This document shows, in pieces, positions 2,266 to 56,869 of a DNA stretch of 64,000 nt. This DNA is from a bacterium. GTDB taxonomy: Bacteria > UBA8248. The position numbers and the translations under genes are program-made. The notes beneath the pieces were generated by a model that did not search any database, was not told where the DNA came from, and saw only the letters and a program-made list of their open reading frames with translations. Within the stretch, counting starts at the first letter, position 1. Every line of letters begins with the position of its first letter. The stretch lies in NCBI GenBank assembly GCA_963692865.2, contig OY843592.1, positions 1,344,001 through 1,408,000 of the forward strand, in the 5' to 3' direction.

Positions 2266-4422
2266 ATGTCGCGCCTGGCCGAAGACGAATCCGCCGTCGC
2301 CGCCGAGCCGATCCTCGATCCGCGCCTTCGCTATCTGAACCGCGAACTTTCCTGGCTCGCCTTCAACCGGCGGGTGCTCGCCGAGGCGAGCAACCTCCGC
2401 CACCCACTGCTGGAGCGCCTGCGCTTCCTCTCGATATCGGCGAGCAACCTCGATGAGTTCTTCATGGTGCGCCTGGCGGGCCTCAAGGGACAGGTGGCGA
2501 ACGGCGTCACCCAGAAGAGCCTCGACGGTCGAACGCCCGCCGAGCAGTTGGCCGAAGTCGCCCGGGAGAGCGCGCGGCTGATTTGCGAGCAGGAGTCCGT
2601 CTGGCGGCGTCTGCGGCGGGAACTCGCCGGGGCCGGCATCTCCGTGGTGACCGAGGAGGACCTGAGCGCGAAGGATATGGACTGGCTGGGCGATTACTTC
2701 CTGAAACAGGTTTTCCCCGTGCTGACGCCTCTCGCCATCGACCCGGCGCACCCGTTCCCCTTCATCGCCAATCGCGGCTTCTGTCTGGCGCTCGAACTCG
2801 AAGCCGCCGATGGCGCGCGGAAAATGCGGGCCCTGGTTCCGCTGCCCGATCAGGTGCGCCGCTTCACCCGCCTGCCGGGAGAGGATGTCCGATTCATCGC
2901 GCTGGAGAACCTGGTGCGCCTGTTCATCGATCAGTTGTTCCCGGGCTACCGGATCGCCGGCAGCGGCGTGTTCCGCCTCATCCGCGACAGCGACATCGAA
3001 TACGAGGAGGAGGCCGAAGACCTCGTCCTGTTGTTCGAGACCATGCTGCGCCGCAGGCGGCTCGGCGGCGTGGTGCGCCTGAACCTGAGCGCCGACATGC
3101 CGGTCTCGCTGCGCGAGCTGGTGATAGACGAGTTCGACGCCCAGCCCGAGGACATCGTGGAACTGACCGGCACCATCGGCATGGCGCAACTCGGCGAATT
3201 GATCGATTGCGGGCGATCGGATCTGGTTTTCCCCGCCTACCGGGCGCGCTTTCCCGAGCGCATCCGCGAGTACGACAACGATTGCTTCGCGGCGATCCGT
3301 CACAAGGACATCGTCGTCCATCACCCCTACGAGAGCTTCGACGTGGTGGTGCAGTTCCTCGAACAGGCCGCCGCCGACCCGAACGTGCTGGCGATCAAGC
3401 AGACGCTCTACCGCACGACCGACGAGTCGCCCATCGTCAAGGCGCTCATCGCGGCGGCGGAATCGGGCAAATCGGTCACGGCGCTCGTCGAACTCAAGGC
3501 GCGCTTCGACGAGGAGACCAACCTCAAGCTCTCCCAGTCGCTGGAGCGCGCGGGCGTCCACGTGGTCTACGGCTTCATGAAGCTCAAGACCCACGCCAAG
3601 GTCACCTGCGTCGTGCGGCGCGAGGGGGAAGATCTGCGGAGCTACGTGCATTTCGGCACGGGCAATTACCACCCGATCACCGCGCGCGTCTATACCGACC
3701 TCTCGTTCTTCACCTGCGACGAGCGTCTCGCGCATGACGCCGCCCAGGTGTTCAACCTGACCACGGGCTACGCGCTGCCGCGCAGTTTCGAATGCGTCGC
3801 CGTGGCGCCGTCGGGGCTTCGAAAATCCGTGCTGGCAATGATTGACGAGGAGATCGCCAACGCCGAGGCGGGCCGGCCGGCCGCGGTCTGGGCGAAGATG
3901 AACTCGCTGGTCGACGGGACGGTCATCGACAAGCTCTACCAGGCGAGCGCCGCGGGCGTTCAGGTCGACCTGGTGGTGCGCGGCATCTGCTGCCTGCGTC
4001 CGGGCGTGCCGGGTCTGTCGGAGAACATCCGGGTGAAGAGCATCATCGGGCGTTTTCTCGAACACTCTCGCATCGTGTGTTTCGCCAACGGCCACCCGCT
4101 GCCCTCGCCGCACGCGAAGGTGTTCATGACCTCGGCCGACTGGATGCCGCGCAACTTCGACCGCCGCTGCGAGGTGCTGGTGCCGATAGAGAACGAAACC
4201 GTGCATCAGCAGGTGCTCGATCAGATCATGGTGGCGAATTTCAAGGACGACGCCCAAAGCTGGCACATGGCAGGCGACGGCGGCTACGAGCGCGCGCCGC
4301 TCGGGGAAGAAGATTTCACGGCGCACACCTATTTCATGACGAATCCGAGTCTGTCCGGCCGCGGAAGCGCGCTGAGACGGGCCGGCGGCCCGGCGAGGTT
4401 GCGTATTGCGGAAGACGGCTGA
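2266..4422 (+). CDS. ppk1: Polyphosphate kinase 1
   Basis: [68 protein letters not shown]. Confidence 0.97.
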
Positions 4423-50063: not shown

Positions 50064-50798
50064 CTATCCTTTGCGTCGCTTTGTGGTGGCCCTGCGCGGA
50101 CGACGCCCGCGGGCAACCCGCTTTATCAAGCGTTTAAGCTCTTTCATCTCCAGCCATGGCTGCTTCGCATGGATCATACTGTGGCAATTCGAACACAGTA
50201 AAACCAGATCGTTTAAGCGAGTCACGCTTCCGGGCTTCAAATCGCGCAACGGCTTGGTGTGGTGGCACTCGATGAAGCCTTCGCCTCTTTCTTCTCCATA
50301 CTTTTCCGTGAACTCGAACCCGCACGCTTCACAGACTAGCCGACCACTTTCTCGGCGTACTTTTTCCTTCTTCTTTTGGGCGAGTTTACGGTTTCGCTCT
50401 CGGACGATATGAGACTTGGTAAGAATTTTCCCCTCGGGAGCCTCGGCGATGAAGCCCATCAACTCCGTATCTTGCGCCGGTCCCGACTTTTGATCCGCCT
50501 TGAAATGTTGTTTTATGGTGTTGGCCGTGGAGCTTAGCCTGTCCGGGTCATCGGCGAACTCATCCCACACTTCTTGAACGAGTTTGGAACCCGATTCAAG
50601 ACCTTTGTGATCATTACTAGGATCATGAAAGGCGAAATTCCCTAATCTTGTCCGCACACTACCTTCGGATCTCCTCAAAAGGTTACACAATTCCTTGAAC
50701 TTTTCGGGGTCGCTCTTAAGGGGATTTTCTCCGAGGGAAAAATAGTCATTCAGCGTCAGAATTACTTCATCCCTGGTCCAATTATTTCGTTTGCTCAA
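50064..50798 (-). CDS. HNH endonuclease (McrA-like)
   Basis: WTRDEVIL N-domain, APEG, RERN, CEACGF, IECHH, LCSNCHSMIH; TTG start after GGAGG. Confidence 0.85.
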   Translation of the reverse strand: MSKRNNWTRDEVILTLNDYFSLGENPLKSDPEKFKELCNLLRRSEGSVRTRLGNFAFHDPSNDHKGLESGSKLVQEVWDEFADDPDRLSSTANTIKQHFKADQKSGPAQDTELMGFIAEAPEGKILTKSHIVRERNRKLAQKKKEKVRRESGRLVCEACGFEFTEKYGEERGEGFIECHHTKPLRDLKPGSVTRLNDLVLLCSNCHSMIHAKQPWLEMKELKRLIKRVARGRRPRRATTKRRKG

Positions 50799-50954
50799 GC
50801 CCTTTCCTCCGCTTCGACTCGCTCCCGTTTCAACATCCCGAACGGTCGGCGATCCCCCGCGATGCGGACGGAAAAAGGCGGCCCGCCGCATGGGCCGCCC
50901 GCGCGTCCGCACATCGTTTGCGCCCCTCTCACGAGAGGCGGAAGCATCTTTTTG

Positions 50955-51605
50955 CTAGGCGGAAGCCGCCGCTTCGGCCTTCTGCTCGGCGAGCAGTTCA
51001 TCGAGCAACTCCTGGACGCGATCCGCTTCCATCCAGTCGGATTTGTAGGCGATCCTGCCTTCCTTATCCACAATGAACGTCATGTTCGGCATGCGGCCGA
51101 AGGCGTGCACCACGCTCTCGTCGAGGTCGTCGATGAGCACGGGCACCTTCATCCCGAACTCCTCCACGAGTTCCTGCGCATACTGTTTCTTGTGCTCATA
51201 CGTAGTGTGCTGCGCGTACTTCTTGAAATGGCTCGTCTCGCCCGCGTGGGGCTCCTTGGAGTAGACGACGAAGAAGACCACGTCCTCATCCCTGTATTTC
51301 TCCTGCAAATCCTCGACGCCGGCCACCTGCCGGCGGTAGGGGGGTCACGTGATGGCGCCGAACTCGACCACGATGTTCTTCTTCCCGAAGAAGTCCGAGA
51401 GGTCGAACGCGGCGTCCTCGGTGGTCTTGAGCCTTACGCCTGGCATCGGGTCGCCCGGCTTCAGCGCCTCGCGGAACGCCTCCTTGCGCTGCTTGCGGTA
51501 GCCCATGAGCATCCGCTTCGCGAACGCCACCTTGTCGATGTAGAACGCGCTCCAAAGCCCGAACAACGGACCCGGCGGCCTGTCGAACTCATCCGATACT
51601 CGCAT
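50955..51605 (-). CDS. Deiodinase-like thioredoxin-fold selenoprotein (UGA 51345-51347 read as Sec)
   Basis: ORFs 51345-51707 and 50955-51326 are in frame: VVEFGAIT-U-PPYRRQV...VYSKEPHAGE...PN; SECIS hairpin follows the UGA. Confidence 0.9.
51317..51335 (-). promoter_or_regulatory. Bacterial SECIS element
   Basis: CGCCGGC-AGGTG-GCCGGCG perfect 7-bp stem, 9 nt after the UGA, G-containing apical loop. Confidence 0.85.
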
Positions 51606-51690
51606 AATCGCTCCAGATATGAGGGTGGATAGACGCCGCCCCATTAAAGACGAACGGGACGGGATAAGCAAGGGTCTCCCCCTCCCCTCC

Positions 51691-51737
51691 CCCCCAAATT
51701 CACGCAACCCCGCGAATCTGGTATGCTCGGCCCGTGG
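51691..51737 (+). promoter_or_regulatory. Sigma70-like promoter, duplicate of the ftsH upstream region
   Basis: TTCACG-17 nt-TATGCT; 40/47 identical to 53731-53777. Confidence 0.7.
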
Positions 51738-51807
51738 CGCGACTTGGAATCGGGCGGTTCGCCGCTTTTCGTTTCCGGGGATTCATTGATGATGCCGAGG
51801 GGACGGT

Positions 51808-52698
51808 GTGAGATACTCCTTGCCAGAGATTGATCTTGATTGGGAAGGCCGGGAGGGTTGGGAAGGTTTTGATGCGTTGGCGCGACTCCATGCGCAGACC
51901 AGAGATTGCTGTTTTCAAGACATAGAAATTGATATGGCCGAAACGCAGTGGTTTCAAGCCGATATGTGTGCAGCGTTCGGAGCCATCCTGTATCATTTGG
52001 GAAACAATCCGAATACAGTTCATTTAATGAATATTGACGAAAAGGTGGAGGATATCCTTTCAAGAAACGGTTTTCTGAGTCACTATGGAGGGAAGAAAAT
52101 CCCGGATTCCCGGGGAACGACGATTTCCTATCAACGATTCGATGTGGAGGATGGCCGTCATTTCTCCGGCTACATTGAGAGCGAGTTTATCCATCGTCCT
52201 GAGATTCCCGCCATGTCGCCGGGGTTGGTGAAAAAATTTCACCAGAGCATTTTTGAGATATTCAACAATGCAGTTCTCCATTCAGGCACCGTATCGGGGA
52301 TATTCAGTTGTGGGCAGTTTTTCCCGAAGCAGGAGAAACTCAATTTTACGGTGGCTGACTTGGGAGTCGGCATACCCCGAAACGTAAAAGACTACACAGG
52401 AAGACATTTGTCCTCAGTAGATGCGATTATTTGGGCCACACAGGACAATAATACGACAAAACGCGCTGGCGTATCGGGTGGCCTGGGGTTGAAATTGCTT
52501 GGCGAGTTCATTGAATTGAATGGCGGCTGCATTCGCATTGTGTCGGATGATGGGTATTGGGAAAAGAAAAAGAATGATATCTTTACCACAAAGTTGAGTC
52601 ACCCGTTTCCCGGCACCGTGGTGGGTATGGAAATCAATACAGCGGATACAAGTTCTTACGGTCTTGCTTCCGAAGTGAGTGCCGATGATATTTTTTAA
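51808..52698 (+). CDS. STAS-like + HATPase_c (anti-sigma/GHKL-like) ATP-binding protein
   Basis: EIFNNAVLHS (N box), ADLGVGI (G1), TTK..GGLGL (G2), FPGT. Confidence 0.85.
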   Translation: MRYSLPEIDLDWEGREGWEGFDALARLHAQTRDCCFQDIEIDMAETQWFQADMCAAFGAILYHLGNNPNTVHLMNIDEKVEDILSRNGFLSHYGGKKIPDSRGTTISYQRFDVEDGRHFSGYIESEFIHRPEIPAMSPGLVKKFHQSIFEIFNNAVLHSGTVSGIFSCGQFFPKQEKLNFTVADLGVGIPRNVKDYTGRHLSSVDAIIWATQDNNTTKRAGVSGGLGLKLLGEFIELNGGCIRIVSDDGYWEKKKNDIFTTKLSHPFPGTVVGMEINTADTSSYGLASEVSADDIF

Positions 52699-52700
52699 GT

Positions 52701-53078
52701 ATGGGAACGATGATGCGAAAAGACATGGACATATCCATTTTTGAGGTGGTGGGCAGTCCGCTTTGCGTCGCTTCCGGCGATGGACAGAAGGTGTATGAGC
52801 GTCTCGCCCCCGTCATTGAGCAAGGGCGCGGCGCAGTGCTTTCGTTCCGCAACGTGGCCTTGTTGACTTCGGCCTTTTTGAATACCGCGATTGGTCAGCT
52901 GTATGGAAAATTCGATGAGGATCAAATTCGCTCCTCTCTTAAGATAGCGGATATGGAGCCCGACGATATCGCGTTGCTCAAGCGCGTCGTGGAGACGGCC
53001 AAGCGGTACTTCAAAGACCCGGAGAGATTCGACCGGACGGTTCGGGACGTGCTGGAAGACGAGGGCGATGCCTGCTAA
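52701..53078 (+). CDS. STAS-like DUF4325 protein
   Basis: DGQKVY, LSFRNV, TSAFLNTAIGQLY with a conserved Ser/Thr. Confidence 0.85.
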   Translation: MGTMMRKDMDISIFEVVGSPLCVASGDGQKVYERLAPVIEQGRGAVLSFRNVALLTSAFLNTAIGQLYGKFDEDQIRSSLKIADMEPDDIALLKRVVETAKRYFKDPERFDRTVRDVLEDEGDAC

Positions 53079-53604
53079 GGATGTAAGGAAACACCGTTTT
53101 ACCGAATGAGACCGGTTGTTCCTGGATGCCAACGTCTGGTTGTACAACTTCTGTCCTGACGCGCAGCCACCCGGACCTTCTCCCAAAGTAGAGGTTTATT
53201 CGCAGGCGTTCACCGACATTCTTCAAGCGAAAAGCCAAATTTTTATCGATGTTCTCGTCACGTCGGAGTTCATCAACAGATACGCCAGACTGCGATGGGA
53301 AAATGAAGCGTCCGGCACGGAATTCAAGGTTTTTCGCAACAGCGCGGAATTCACGGATGTCGCTCGGGAAATCGCTTGTCAATCAGGGCGGGTAGTTAGT
53401 TTTTGTTCACGGTTGGAAAGCGGGTTTGTGAAGTTGCAGATAGACGATTTGCTCGACACCTACAGCGAGGGTGGATCCGATTTCAACGATCAGGTGATAG
53501 CGGAATTGTGCAAAAGAGAGGGCCTGACTCTACTCACGCACGACGGCGATTTCGAAAATCAGGAAATATCCATTCTGACCGCGAATCCGCGTTTGCTGAA
53601 TTAA
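53068..53604 (+). CDS. PIN-domain protein; in-frame TGA at 53107-53109, or restart at TTG 53116
   Basis: FLDANVW, SEFINR, DFND, LLTHDGDF, ILTAN; ATG 53068 overlaps the upstream gene. Confidence 0.8.
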
Positions 53605-53730
53605 GACGGCGCCGTTTTCCGAAGCGCGCCGATTCGTGGCGCTTCGGATTTCGTCTCCTCCTCTCCCGATCGTGCGGGCCGTCCCCTCTGTCCGAATCGT
53701 CTCGACGAACGATGACGGATATCCCCCCGC

Positions 53731-53777
53731 CCCCCAAATTCACGCGGCCTTGTGAATCTGATATGCTCGGGCCGTGG
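53731..53777 (+). promoter_or_regulatory. Probable ftsH promoter
   Basis: TTCACG-17 nt-TATGCT with a TTCAC-N8-GTGAA palindrome over the -35. Confidence 0.7.
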
Positions 53778-53848
53778 GTCCCCAAGTCTCGCGCCGCGCC
53801 GCCGCCGGATGAGCGAACCAGCCGCTATCCTCCCCCAAGGAGGGGACG

Positions 53849-55678
53849 ATGAACAAGAAAACGCAGTTTTCCATCGGGTATTTCCTTTTCATCTTCATTA
53901 TCATGTCCCTCATCCACACCCTCTTTTTCCAGGGGGCGCGCTACCAGCGCATCCCCTACAACGAGTTCCGCGCGATGCTCAAGGAAGGCGACGTGGAGCG
54001 CGTCGACATCCGTGGCGACCGCTTGCAAGGCGTCCTGAAACGCCGCGACGCCGACGGCCGGCAGCGGTTCTTCGAGACCGCGAAGGTGGCCGACCCCGAC
54101 CTCATCGAGCTCCTGGAAGGCGCGGGCGTCATCTTTCAGGGCCAGTTCGAGCCGCCCTGGCTGGTGCAGGTGTTTACGAGCTGGGTGCTGCCGCTGGCGA
54201 TCCTCTTCGCCATCTACGCCTTCGTGCTGCGCCGCATGGGTCCCGGCCAGGGGGTGATGGCCTTCGGCAAGAACAAGGCGAAGATATTTGCGGAAAAGGA
54301 AGTGGGGGTGCGCTTCGCCGACGTCGCGGGCGTGGACGAGGCCAAGGCGGAACTCGCCGAGGTGGTGGATTACCTCAAGAATCCGGATCGCTACCTGAGA
54401 CTTGGCGGCAAGATTCCGCGCGGCGTCCTGCTGGTGGGGCCTCCCGGCTGCGGGAAGACGTTGATGGCCAAAGCCGTGGCGGGAGAGGCGGGGGTCTTTT
54501 TCTTCAGCATCAGCGGGTCCGAGTTCGTGGAAATGTTCGTGGGGCTGGGCGCGGCGCGCGTGCGCGACCTGTTCGAGCAGGCGATGGAGAAGGCCCCCTG
54601 CATCGTCTTCGTGGACGAGCTGGACGCGCTGGGCAAGGCGCGCGGCGTGGGGAACATTGCGGGCGGGCACGACGAGCGCGAGCAGACGCTCAATCAGCTC
54701 CTGGTCGAGATGGACGGCTTCGACACCCGAAAGGGGGTCATCATCATGGCGGCGACGAACCGCCCCGAGATTTTAGACCCCGCCCTCCTGCGCCCGGGGC
54801 GCTTCGACAGGCAGGTGCTGGTCGACAAGCCGGACCTGAGCGGCAGGAGGCATATTCTGGAAGTCCACACGAAGGTGCTCGTGCTGGGCGGGGACGTGGA
54901 TATCGAGCGGCTCGCCGAGATGACGCCCGGCCTCTCGGGAGCCGACCTCGCCAATCTCGCGAACGAGGCGGCGCTCCTGGCGGCGCGCCACGACCGCGAC
55001 GCGGTGATGATGGCCGACTTCGAAGAGGCCTTCGAGCGCGTGGCGGCGGGCTTGGAGAAGCGCTCGCGCGTCATGACGAGCGAGGAGCGCCGCCGGGTGG
55101 CCTACCACGAACTCGGCCACGCCATGGTGGCCGAACTCGTCGGCACGGCGGACCCGGTGCAGAAGGTATCCATCATCCCGAGGGGCCTCGCCGCCCTGGG
55201 ATACACCCTGCAGCGGCCGACGGAGGATCGTTACCTGCTCTCCAAAAAGGAGCTAGAGGACAGGATCGCCGTCCTCCTCGCGGGCCGCGCGGCGGAAGAG
55301 GTGGTGTTCGGGGAGGTCTCCACGGGGGCGCAGAACGATCTTCAGCGCGCGACCGACATGGCGCGCTCCATGGTGACCGAATACGGCATGAGCGAGCGCT
55401 TCGGCCCCCACGCGATGGGAGGGACGCCGCGCTCGCTGTTCCTGGGCGGCGGGATGAACGGCGCGTCCCATCTCGACATCAGCGAGGCGACCCAGCGCGA
55501 GGTGGACGAGGAGGTGGAGAAAATCCTGGACGGCGCCTCTGTCCGCGCGAGGGAGATTTTGACCGAGCGGCGCGACGACCTCGAAGCCCTCACCGCGCGC
55601 CTGCTCGAGCAGGAAACCATCGGCGGGGACGAACTCCGCACAGCGCTGGGCGTGGGGGAAGCGCGAAGCGGAGGATGA
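53849..55678 (+). CDS. ftsH: ATP-dependent zinc metalloprotease FtsH
   Basis: [53 protein letters not shown]. Confidence 0.96.
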
Positions 55679-55732: not shown

Positions 55733-56869
55733 TTAGTAATCCTCGGCGTATTCCTCATATTCTCCGATGATGGAATCGTTCATGTGTTCGAGGTCAGGTT
55801 TGTTTCCAAGTTCCTCCAAAGCATCGTAGGAAAGAAAAGAACAGTTTTCATATAAGGGGCCTCGTTCGAGCAGCGAGAACACCGGGCGCTTGATCTCACG
55901 CAGCACCTTTTCCCGTCTTTCATCCGGCGCGACGATATGAAGCCGGATATCCATATTGGGTTGGAGGGCCAGAAGGTCCGCCATTCTCAACAAACCGGAA
56001 TATATTGCCGTGGTGTGCTCGACTTCGAAGGCTCTCGCCATCGAGCGGCCCTTCAACCAGATAACGTCGATCTGCTCAATGGTTTGGATCGTGGTATCGT
56101 CGTAGTTGAGCGGTAGGTTTTCCAGAAAACGGAGTTTCACGGAGTCCTCTATTTCCGCGAGCACTCGATCTCTGTCGCTGCGCGGCACCCAAATTCGAAA
56201 GTCCATCTTTGCGCCGATTTCCGCAATTTTTGCCTGCATCCGTATTGATTTTCGGACCTCCGGAGACACTGCGGCTTTGACTATGGCTTCTCCCGCATCG
56301 CCGTTGTCCTCGTCGCCTACGGGGACTTCGACCGACACTTCGCCACTTTCAGTCCGAACCTTGAGGCTCTGGAGATGTTGCCGATCGGCATCCGTAAACG
56401 GATAATCAATTCGACTCTTGTCTTGTTCTTGCCGTTGCAAGCGGGGTACGAGGAAATCGCCGTCCGAGTCGGGTAGTTTCCGTAAAGAGTTGCCGAAGAG
56501 CATACCCCATCCCTTATACCCCTTTTCTTTCTCTTTGGTGATGGAAAGAGTGTTCCAGATTTCATCATCTTGGACAGGAATCGAGCTTTCCGGCTCAAGG
56601 AGAACAATTGGCTCTACCTTGAAATGCACCACGAAGGGAGAATTGGGATCTCCCCAAATCGGCGTATCACCTTCATGCGCATGGGATGCGATCCTCAACG
56701 CGCCGCACCAGCGTGATACGCGAACTAGGTAGCAAACGAAAATGTCGCCGGGCTTGATGTGCTCGTGTGCTCTCCTGCGTTGCGATTTTCGAAATCCACT
56801 AACGCTGGCGCCGTGGTCTTGGAAAGCTGACCAAGTTTCAGGGGTAAAAAGATTCAAAAAATAAGCCAT
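55733..56869 (-). CDS. EVE/PUA-like domain + PD-(D/E)XK-like nuclease
   Basis: TPETW..GF..IKPGDIFVCY N-domain; IDVIW..AFEVEHTT C-domain; AT-richer. Confidence 0.75.
   Translation of the reverse strand: MAYFLNLFTPETWSAFQDHGASVSGFRKSQRRRAHEHIKPGDIFVCYLVRVSRWCGALRIASHAHEGDTPIWGDPNSPFVVHFKVEPIVLLEPESSIPVQDDEIWNTLSITKEKEKGYKGWGMLFGNSLRKLPDSDGDFLVPRLQRQEQDKSRIDYPFTDADRQHLQSLKVRTESGEVSVEVPVGDEDNGDAGEAIVKAAVSPEVRKSIRMQAKIAEIGAKMDFRIWVPRSDRDRVLAEIEDSVKLRFLENLPLNYDDTTIQTIEQIDVIWLKGRSMARAFEVEHTTAIYSGLLRMADLLALQPNMDIRLHIVAPDERREKVLREIKRPVFSLLERGPLYENCSFLSYDALEELGNKPDLEHMNDSIIGEYEEYAEDY

Follow-up and report, generated by a model that had tools for sequence, protein, structure and literature searches.

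A probable vapKSC family cassette upstream of ftsH with an early in-frame stop codon in vapC

INTRODUCTION

What does a closely packed set of genes for a GHKL-type ATPase, a STAS-like protein and a PIN nuclease do, and can it still do so in the genome in which it was found? Such a set lies between positions 51691 and 53777 of a 64,000-nucleotide (nt) stretch of contig OY843592.1 (assembly GCA_963692865.2, positions 1,344,001 to 1,408,000 of the forward strand) from a bacterium of the GTDB lineage UBA8248. This whole stretch is called the window, and all coordinates refer to it. An earlier reading made from the letters alone, referred to here as the original prediction, proposed that a phosphorylation switch gates the PIN RNase in an abortive-infection or stress module, and did not recognize the set as a named system. 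Our analysis places the cassette, with a probability of about 0.85, in the vapKSC family of toxin-antitoxin and anti-phage systems, which have three components and are gated by a kinase. The toxin gene of this copy is interrupted near its 5' end by an in-frame stop codon.

The vapKSC system was named by Chambers, Rani, Min, Villa and Corbett in a study of Escherichia sp. E4736 (EMBO J 2026; PMC13373217). The preprint (10.64898/2026.02.02.703251) dates from February 2026 and the paper from June 2026, and a literature search for "VapKSC" returned only these two records. The sections of the paper used here describe VapS as a STAS domain plus a short stretch at the C terminus, and VapC as a PIN nuclease. 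VapS binds and neutralizes VapC, and the crystal structure of the 2:2 complex is available (PDB 9Z7O). S48 of VapS stands at a Ser/Thr position of the STAS domain that is absolutely conserved, and VapK has a CapK-like STAS domain ahead of its kinase domain. VapC is toxic and VapC D28A is nontoxic; growth is rescued by VapS, whereas neither VapS without its C terminus nor the phosphomimetic variant S48E restores it, and S48E does not neutralize VapC or copurify with it. The operon gave E. coli about 2-log protection against one phage, Bas42, and this protection was gone in the VapC D28A, VapS S48A and VapK F54A mutants. In IMG the authors counted 289 vapKSC operons, and for 36% a known immune gene lay no more than 10 kb away. 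According to the same sections, phosphorylation by VapK and its activation by single-stranded DNA (ssDNA) rest on AlphaFold 3 models and on experiments with CapK, for which activation by ssDNA was demonstrated; since VapK was insoluble, its kinase activity was deduced there and not directly shown. A link between PIN and DUF4325 had already been noted in 2017 by Matelska et al., in the subfamily PIN.4 (PMC5499597).

RESULTS

The cassette encodes homologs of VapS and VapC

Open reading frame (ORF) calling in the window gave three plus-strand ORFs in the cassette, which we name vapK, vapS and vapC. Comparison with relatives added a short 5' remnant of vapC. The coding features are as follows.

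51808 to 52698, plus strand: vapK, 296 amino acids (aa), GTG start, encoding an N-terminal STAS-like domain and a C-terminal GHKL (Bergerat-fold) kinase/ATPase domain (Pfam HATPase_c).
52701 to 53078, plus strand: vapS, 125 aa, encoding a STAS-like (DUF4325) antitoxin with a C-terminal helix and a predicted phosphoacceptor, Ser57 (Pfam DUF4325).
53068 to 53109, plus strand: 5' remnant of vapC, 13 codons starting with ATG and then an in-frame TGA (53107 to 53109), recognized by comparison with relatives.
53116 to 53604, plus strand: core of vapC, 162 aa, TTG start, encoding a PIN nuclease domain (Pfam PIN).

The Pfam matches were HATPase_c for the product of vapK (E=3.8e-6; 27.7 bits, just above the cutoff of 26.4), the "STAS-like" family DUF4325 for VapS (E=9.9e-15) and PIN for the vapC core (E=2.8e-9). 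The GC content was 0.47 to 0.51 over positions 52000 to 53499, compared with 0.61 to 0.69 in the flanks. The description of the locus in the original prediction, three AT-richer genes of these families with the N, G1 and G2 boxes in the first product and a TSAFLN motif in the second, therefore holds, and the boxes and the motif proved to be invariant or nearly so among homologs (see below). Its account of the gene spacing stands for vapK and vapS, which are 2 bp apart; the overlap that it reported between the second and third genes exists only for the ATG at 53068, which overlaps vapS by 11 nt and whose frame runs into the TGA, and the distance from vapS to the TTG at 53116 is 37 nt. As it had also stated, the cassette and the genes next to it include none for a sigma factor, the rest of the genome not having been searched for one.

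When VapS was compared with the PDB using phmmer, it matched chain 9z7o_A, "Escherichia VapS" (E=4e-17), with residues 11 to 121 of 125 aligned with chain residues 21 to 129. Ser57, within the sequence LLTSAFLN, aligned with S66 of the chain, which is the native S48 if the 134-residue chain bears an 18-residue tag on a 116-residue protein. The segment T56 to N61 (TSAFLN), including Ser57, was invariant in 14/14 VapS sequences. For the PIN protein, a profile built from 14 PIN sequences matched chain 9z7o_C, "Escherichia VapC" (E=3.8e-13), over positions 5-179/10-192, and the catalytic D28 of the Escherichia VapC chain aligned with D4 of the window VapC. The residues invariant in the 14 PIN sequences were all kept in the window VapC, including the acidic residues D4, E51, D122, D125, D143 and D145.

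The 162-aa window VapC was then modeled together with VapS. The pair scored 0.78, against 0.00 for the best of three controls; the mark used for this score was attained by 58 of 80 solved complexes and by 2 of 110 mismatched pairs. The runs shared at least 83% of their contacts, with a predicted local distance difference test (pLDDT) value of at least 86 for the partner. The modeled interface of VapS with VapC comprised residues 56 to 59, which include the predicted phosphoacceptor, and the C-terminal residues 88 to 119. The model thus agrees with the published description; because a similar complex had already been solved (9Z7O), it speaks for likeness and not for binding by this particular copy.

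VapK has a GHKL kinase domain preceded by a probable STAS domain

The start of vapK is supported by homologs of 290 aa, which begin at an equivalent V/M-R/K-Y/F; the gene call in the sequence collection (P0001) is a truncation of 223 aa. Among 84 homologs, the N box (E150, N154 and H158), the G1 box (G186) and the G2 box (G224, G225 and G227) were invariant, and D184 of G1 was conserved at 90% or more. The AlphaFold2 model of VapK was of high confidence (pLDDT 94.6; predicted template modeling score 0.92). In a Foldseek search it matched GHKL proteins, and the highest target-normalized template modeling scores were obtained with SpoIIAB (1tid_C, 0.74; 1l0o_A, 0.70).

SpoIIAB is 134 to 141 residues long and has no counterpart of the additional N-terminal domain of VapK. 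In the AlphaFold2 model this domain is made of beta-alpha repeats. When it was modeled alone, from 14 sequences, nearly all Foldseek matches were STAS proteins (RsbS, the STAS domain of SLC26, SpoIIAA and RsbV), the best being RsbS (6jhk_A, E=0.033). The N terminus of VapK is therefore likely to be a STAS domain. At the start of its modeled helix 2 lie W48 and F49, a "WF" in the consensus of the 84 sequences, and our guess is that these would be the equivalent of F54 in the Escherichia VapK, a conserved aromatic residue at the predicted ssDNA groove.

The kinase-STAS-PIN order is conserved in the genus and in distant bacteria

The distribution of the cassette was examined at several levels; genomes and loci used for comparison carry labels beginning with G and L. 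Seven of the other 22 same-genus genomes contained relatives of the PIN protein, compared with none of 18 genomes outside the genus (8/41 with the window's own genome), and the kinase-STAS-PIN order was kept in all seven same-genus loci. A profile of the 84 kinase homologs recovered the same seven genomes and none of 28 others in a sample of the phylum (8/51). A scan of one genome per species, which relied on exact peptide words and consequently gave only seven loci, found two in Binatia, one in Bryobacterales, one in Poribacteria and three in other bacteria. In each of the seven the triad is complete and in order; because the L012 copy is identical to that of G008, six of these loci are additional. 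A further triad, 33% identical, is carried by a plasmid of Deinococcus gobiensis, where the products are annotated as "ATP-binding protein," "STAS-like domain-containing protein" and "PIN domain-containing protein." Since the order is kept in the seven same-genus loci, the seven loci of the scan and the Deinococcus plasmid, the triad is not a chance arrangement.

The kinase family itself is large: of 2009 candidates, 1389 proteins had E<=0.001; its clusters numbered 1927, 1085 and 332 at E<=1e-3, 1e-10 and 1e-30, respectively. Relatives were scarce in collections of phages (3 of 50,697 records) and plasmids (2 of 72,556 records). VapK is 60 to 76% identical to the same-genus copies and 60 to 66% identical to those of other phyla. 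These similar identities suggested repeated acquisition of the cassette by the genus, an idea that we rejected because the tree gives a single clade instead: the eight VapK proteins of the genus grouped with two unlabeled metagenome proteins (SH-aLRT support of 99) in a quick tree of 51 sampled rows, for which every fourth database match was taken. A single clade is in keeping with an ancient, one-time arrival upstream of ftsH and subsequent losses, rather than with repeated arrivals.

Kinase-STAS pairs are also found in prophages. In the Streptococcus phage Javan172 (L044; MK448860.1, positions 2959 to 4237), a VapK-like ATPase (26% identity) and, after it, a 114-aa protein are encoded between the prophage integrase and a transcriptional regulator, and no PIN gene is annotated there. 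A table of PMC7924643 gives, for the Francisella prophage KIRK, a protein of 293 aa with a DUF4325 protein of 112 aa after it, near cI and an integrase. Such prophage pairs may serve other outputs.

The vapC reading frame is interrupted at codon 14

In the relatives, vapC begins at a position that overlaps vapS, as the ATG at 53068 does here, and the PIN proteins start about 15 to 25 residues further upstream than the window VapC, without a stop (13/13). The nearest relatives are 67 to 74% identical in protein. In the window, the TGA occupies codon 14 of the ancestral frame, where G007 has GAA and G008 has CGA. The region that it cuts off is a conserved N-terminal extension, V..Y.FT..D.LFLD, of which the motif Y-x-F-T-x-x-D is present in the Escherichia VapC as well. 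The nearly invariant Tyr of this extension is a His in the window.

Contigs from sequencing runs X1 to X3, which belong to one study that is possibly the source of the assembly, cover positions 52600 to 53700 with no differences, and a 151-nt contig from run X5, of a second study, covers 53028 to 53178, likewise with no differences. The stop codon in vapC is thus not an assembly slip, the same TGA being present in contigs from two studies. Other contigs in these four runs matched only positions 52949 to 53034, the most conserved part of vapS, with 2 to 8 differences, and then diverged; they seem to represent further vapS variants from other organisms in the same samples.

An in-frame TTG, at 53116, follows the TGA after 7 nt, so a restart of translation is possible. 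It lies three residues before the first catalytic residue, D4. At best, then, this copy would yield an N-terminally truncated VapC by restart at that codon.

The cassette occupies a variable defense site upstream of ftsH

Three noncoding features frame the genes.

51684 to 51737, no strand assigned: upstream copy of a 54-nt direct repeat, forming the left edge of the cassette (repeat family D1, 83% identity, spacing 2040).
53618 to 53648, plus strand: inverted repeat with 15-nt arms and a 1-nt loop, 14 nt past the vapC stop codon (pair I5, 87% complementary).
53724 to 53777, no strand assigned: downstream copy of the 54-nt direct repeat, 72 nt before the start of ftsH at 53849 (repeat search).

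The gene downstream was identified as ftsH (TIGR01241, E=7.9e-236). The 54-nt repeats were found as two forward and zero reverse copies in the 4.15-Mb genome (a control pattern gave 0), and they coincide with the limits, 51691 and 53777, that had been drawn around the cassette in the original prediction. A stretch of the ftsH upstream region is present in duplicate on the two sides of the cassette. Among the relatives, G003 has the empty site, with a thioredoxin-fold gene and ftsH joined via a single 54-nt copy; positions 50949 to 51737 and 53723 to 55000 of the window both align to a single contig of that genome, in stretches that adjoin and overlap. No full-length upstream copy was found in the relatives examined, and G016 shows a weaker partial second match. 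A sequence within the repeat, TTCACG-17-TATGCT, was considered as a promoter and rejected, as it matches at only 8 of 12 positions and failed the promoter scan. The inverted repeat is a possible transcript end.

What stands at this site differs from genome to genome. Three relatives (G010, G015 and G019) have only 152 to 237 nt there. Seven others (G021, G018, G005, G020, G011, G013 and G002) have about 1.1 kb, with a gene for a 178- to 186-aa protein; the one that was scanned matched SocA_Panacea in Pfam (E=3.1e-20), and the rest were near-identical by eye. In six of the seven this protein has a partner of 117 to 121 aa, matching no family in Pfam or PADLOC; the longest corresponding ORF in G013 reaches 161 aa. 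Three relatives have other systems beside vapKSC. In G006 (L047) this is the Shedu protein SduA (E=1.1e-160), in G022 (L048) it is PDC-S06/AAA_13 (E=2.4e-284) together with the Panacea pair, and in G004 (L046) it is HigB/HigA and an AriA-like ATPase (PD-T4-4_A, E=2.5e-38), the latter adjoined by a 154-aa partner of no family. Since relatives hold Panacea pairs, Shedu, PDC-S06 and an AriA-like ATPase there, the site upstream of ftsH is a hotspot for defense and toxin-antitoxin genes in the genus, and the cassette is cargo of this variable site.

Neighboring genes

Two genes within 2.2 kb of the cassette, for an HNH protein and a REase_II-like protein, add to its defense context. The first, on the minus strand at 50064 to 50912, encodes a 282-aa HNH endonuclease (Pfam HNH, 1.2e-7; PADLOC HNH, 8.7e-13). 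It is an insertion relative to G003, G010, G015 and G019, which have about 20 to 160 nt there; this spot, 0.9 kb away from the cassette, is another variable one. The second, also on the minus strand, at 55733 to 56869, encodes a 378-aa protein with a weak EVE/PUA-like N terminus (Pfam EVE, 0.079; NF002008, 1.8e-5) and a C terminus matching REase_II in PADLOC (3.1e-19). Homologs were found in 4 of the 22 other genomes of the genus, at full length in G013 and G008 and as fragments in G012 and G017; in G013 and G008 they directly follow ftsH, as in the window. This gene could encode a modification-dependent restriction enzyme.

The gene just upstream of the cassette (50955 to 51707, minus strand) is split by ORF callers into parts of 120 aa and 123 aa. 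The two halves are in one frame and are divided by a single TGA at 51345 to 51347; a thioredoxin-fold redox motif, ...FGAIT-U-PPY..., results if this is read as selenocysteine. The C-terminal part matches "deiodinase family protein" (NF038285, E=4.8e-15), the genome encodes selB (391.7 bits; cutoff, 242) and selA (567 bits; cutoff, 268), and the relatives' ORFs for this gene terminate at the same FGAIT. A hairpin following the TGA folds no better than shuffled sequences (z=0.01). This product is likely a selenoprotein. Further away in the window, a tmRNA gene with the tag peptide ADNELALAA is located at 1024 to 1384 on the plus strand.

DISCUSSION

The homology of VapS and VapC to the crystallized Escherichia proteins, the conserved order of the three genes and the defense hotspot in which they lie all point to a vapKSC cassette. 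In the mechanism that we propose by homology, VapS, through its STAS domain and C-terminal helix, would bind the PIN nuclease VapC and block it, with Ser57 in the interface. VapK, a SpoIIAB-related protein of a probable STAS domain and a GHKL domain, would be switched on by ssDNA that is formed upon DNA damage or phage infection and would phosphorylate Ser57 of VapS. Phosphorylated VapS would release VapC, leading to RNA cleavage and to growth arrest of the infected cell. The phosphorylation step of VapK, its response to ssDNA and the RNA target are inferred both for the Escherichia system and here.

A phosphorylation switch gating the PIN RNase, as the original prediction had envisaged, matches the published vapKSC model, and its mechanism is supported by the homology of the window VapS and VapC to the crystallized proteins. 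Of the checks that it suggested, the gene-neighborhood comparison and the model of the VapS-VapC pair (the latter as a likeness only) came out in its favor, and the PADLOC search did not. The prediction had also named a triad already catalogued as an outcome that would speak against it, and this is what we found, for the system bears the name vapKSC in PMC13373217 and the PIN-DUF4325 link dates from 2017.

Several observations weigh against the assignment to vapKSC or against a working system. The window PIN protein as a single sequence had no phmmer match in the PDB at E<=1; only the 14-sequence profile matched. VapK was assigned indirectly, via its fold, its ATP-site residues and the gene order. 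Its N terminus remains only a likely STAS domain because the model of this domain had a low confidence (pLDDT 62), no Foldseek match reached E<=0.001, the best being at E=0.033, and a profile-profile comparison with VapS using hhalign was not significant (E=0.64). PADLOC v2.0.0 had no model for any of the three proteins and thus provided no independent "defense" label; its only match was DrmA against the ATPase domain (0.0038), and NCBIfam gave only subthreshold matches for the cassette proteins. Absence from PADLOC v2.0.0 fits with a system that was named only in 2026. The promoter scan of the region gave nothing above shuffled sequences, and in the terminator scan the inverted repeat at 53618 to 53648 was not among the sites listed, the total of which was no higher than in shuffles. 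Finally, no clear ribosome-binding site was seen by eye before the TTG at 53116, and the early in-frame TGA means that the conserved N-terminal extension is absent from any product; on these two grounds, the system may not work in this genome.

We lean toward a toxin arm that is weakened or dead in this copy rather than fully working; that the truncated VapC is still made and working we regard as somewhat short of an even chance. The question is then whether the cassette is a decayed vapKSC, whose toxin was lost to the nonsense codon while production of VapK and VapS alone continues. The pair would then be a leftover, or would neutralize incoming related toxins, or would be a DNA-damage sensor without output. 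The stop codon at ancestral codon 14, confirmed in contigs from two studies, fits this explanation, as do the replacement of the nearly invariant Tyr by His and the reliance on TTG, a weak start; kinase-STAS pairs without a PIN gene do occur in prophages, as in Javan172 and in the table of PMC7924643. On the other hand, every residue invariant in the 14 PIN proteins is intact past the stop, a restart is possible 7 nt after it, vapK and vapS are intact, and the truncated VapC is still confidently modeled with VapS, within the limits of a likeness. We regard full decay as a serious contender, though less likely than not. A further idea, that this is an unreported variant of vapKSC, appears unlikely. 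It takes two forms. In one, the TGA and TTG would throttle the toxin dose: ribosomes coupled from vapS would halt and seldom restart, giving a low dose of VapC that lacks the extension and is still held by VapS. In the other, vapK and vapS would be kept alone, without the toxin, as a pair of DNA-damage sensor and antitoxin, like the pairs without PIN beside prophage integrases.

With vapKSC as the preferred assignment, the significance of the locus lies in three points, and no new principle is involved beyond them. First, a system studied so far in one Escherichia strain recurs as a conserved cassette in distant environmental lineages, namely, in 7 of the 22 further species of the genus, in Binatia, Acidobacteriota and Poribacteria and on a Deinococcus plasmid. 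Second, the three genes can be named vapK, vapS and vapC in place of generic domain labels. Third, the role of the conserved N-terminal extension could be tested cheaply on this vapC, which is naturally truncated.

Compared with known systems, the cassette shares with type II VapBC modules and with PIN.4 a VapC-like PIN toxin with the usual acidic residues, the likeness to PIN.4 (PMC5499597) being one of description. It differs from VapBC in that a VapB-type DNA-binding antitoxin is replaced by a STAS antitoxin under kinase control: by Pfam, the gene upstream of the PIN gene is DUF4325/STAS-like and not an AbrB, RHH, PhD or helix-turn-helix (HTH) antitoxin.

The pairs SpoIIAB-SpoIIAA and RsbW-RsbV share with it the kinase fold, which for the GHKL domain is closest to SpoIIAB, and a STAS substrate in which a conserved Ser stands where helix 2 begins, as judged by alignment. 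These features would also suit classical partner switching on a sigma factor encoded elsewhere, with the PIN gene as an unrelated neighbor. We consider this highly improbable: a PIN gene is present in 15/15 examined loci with the kinase-STAS pair in this clade, VapS is homologous to a protein crystallized bound to a PIN protein, no sigma factor gene lies in or next to the cassette, and the extra N-terminal STAS-like domain of VapK is absent from SpoIIAB. What would be sequestered here is a PIN nuclease, and the sequestering protein would be the STAS protein rather than the kinase.

CapK and CapS, regulators of immune operons presented in the sections of PMC13373217 used here, are related to VapK and VapS and likewise consist of a GHKL kinase with an internal STAS domain, a probable one in the window VapK, and a STAS substrate with a conserved Ser. 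CapS, however, is a DNA-binding repressor made of a STAS domain and a C-terminal winged HTH domain, and CapK has an N-terminal HTH, whereas the window system has a nuclease as its output, not transcription, and its VapS, of 125 aa with only a C-terminal helix, has no DNA-binding domain. Pfam detected no HTH family in VapK or VapS at E<=0.1, and the VapK model begins directly with STAS-like beta-alpha units. A transcriptional switch of the CapK-CapS type, acting on neighbors such as ftsH upon DNA damage, is accordingly very remote, for the DNA-binding parts lack a counterpart here and the ftsH upstream sequence is the same in relatives without the cassette, even though ftsH directly follows the cassette, which carries a duplicate of 54 nt from the ftsH upstream region.

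With vapKSC of Escherichia sp. E4736, the cassette has in common the K-S-C gene order, full-length sequence homology of VapS and VapC with alignment of the phosphoacceptor Ser and the catalytic Asp, a VapK with a GHKL domain and, probably, a STAS domain, and a location adjoining other defense genes. The differences are the distance of the homology, the window PIN protein reaching VapC by profile only, the early in-frame TGA with loss of the conserved N-terminal extension in a gene that is intact in 13/13 relatives, and the host, here an environmental high-GC bacterium. The cassette is thus a distant member of an already described system, to which this locus adds a nonsense codon in vapC and a hotspot upstream of ftsH.

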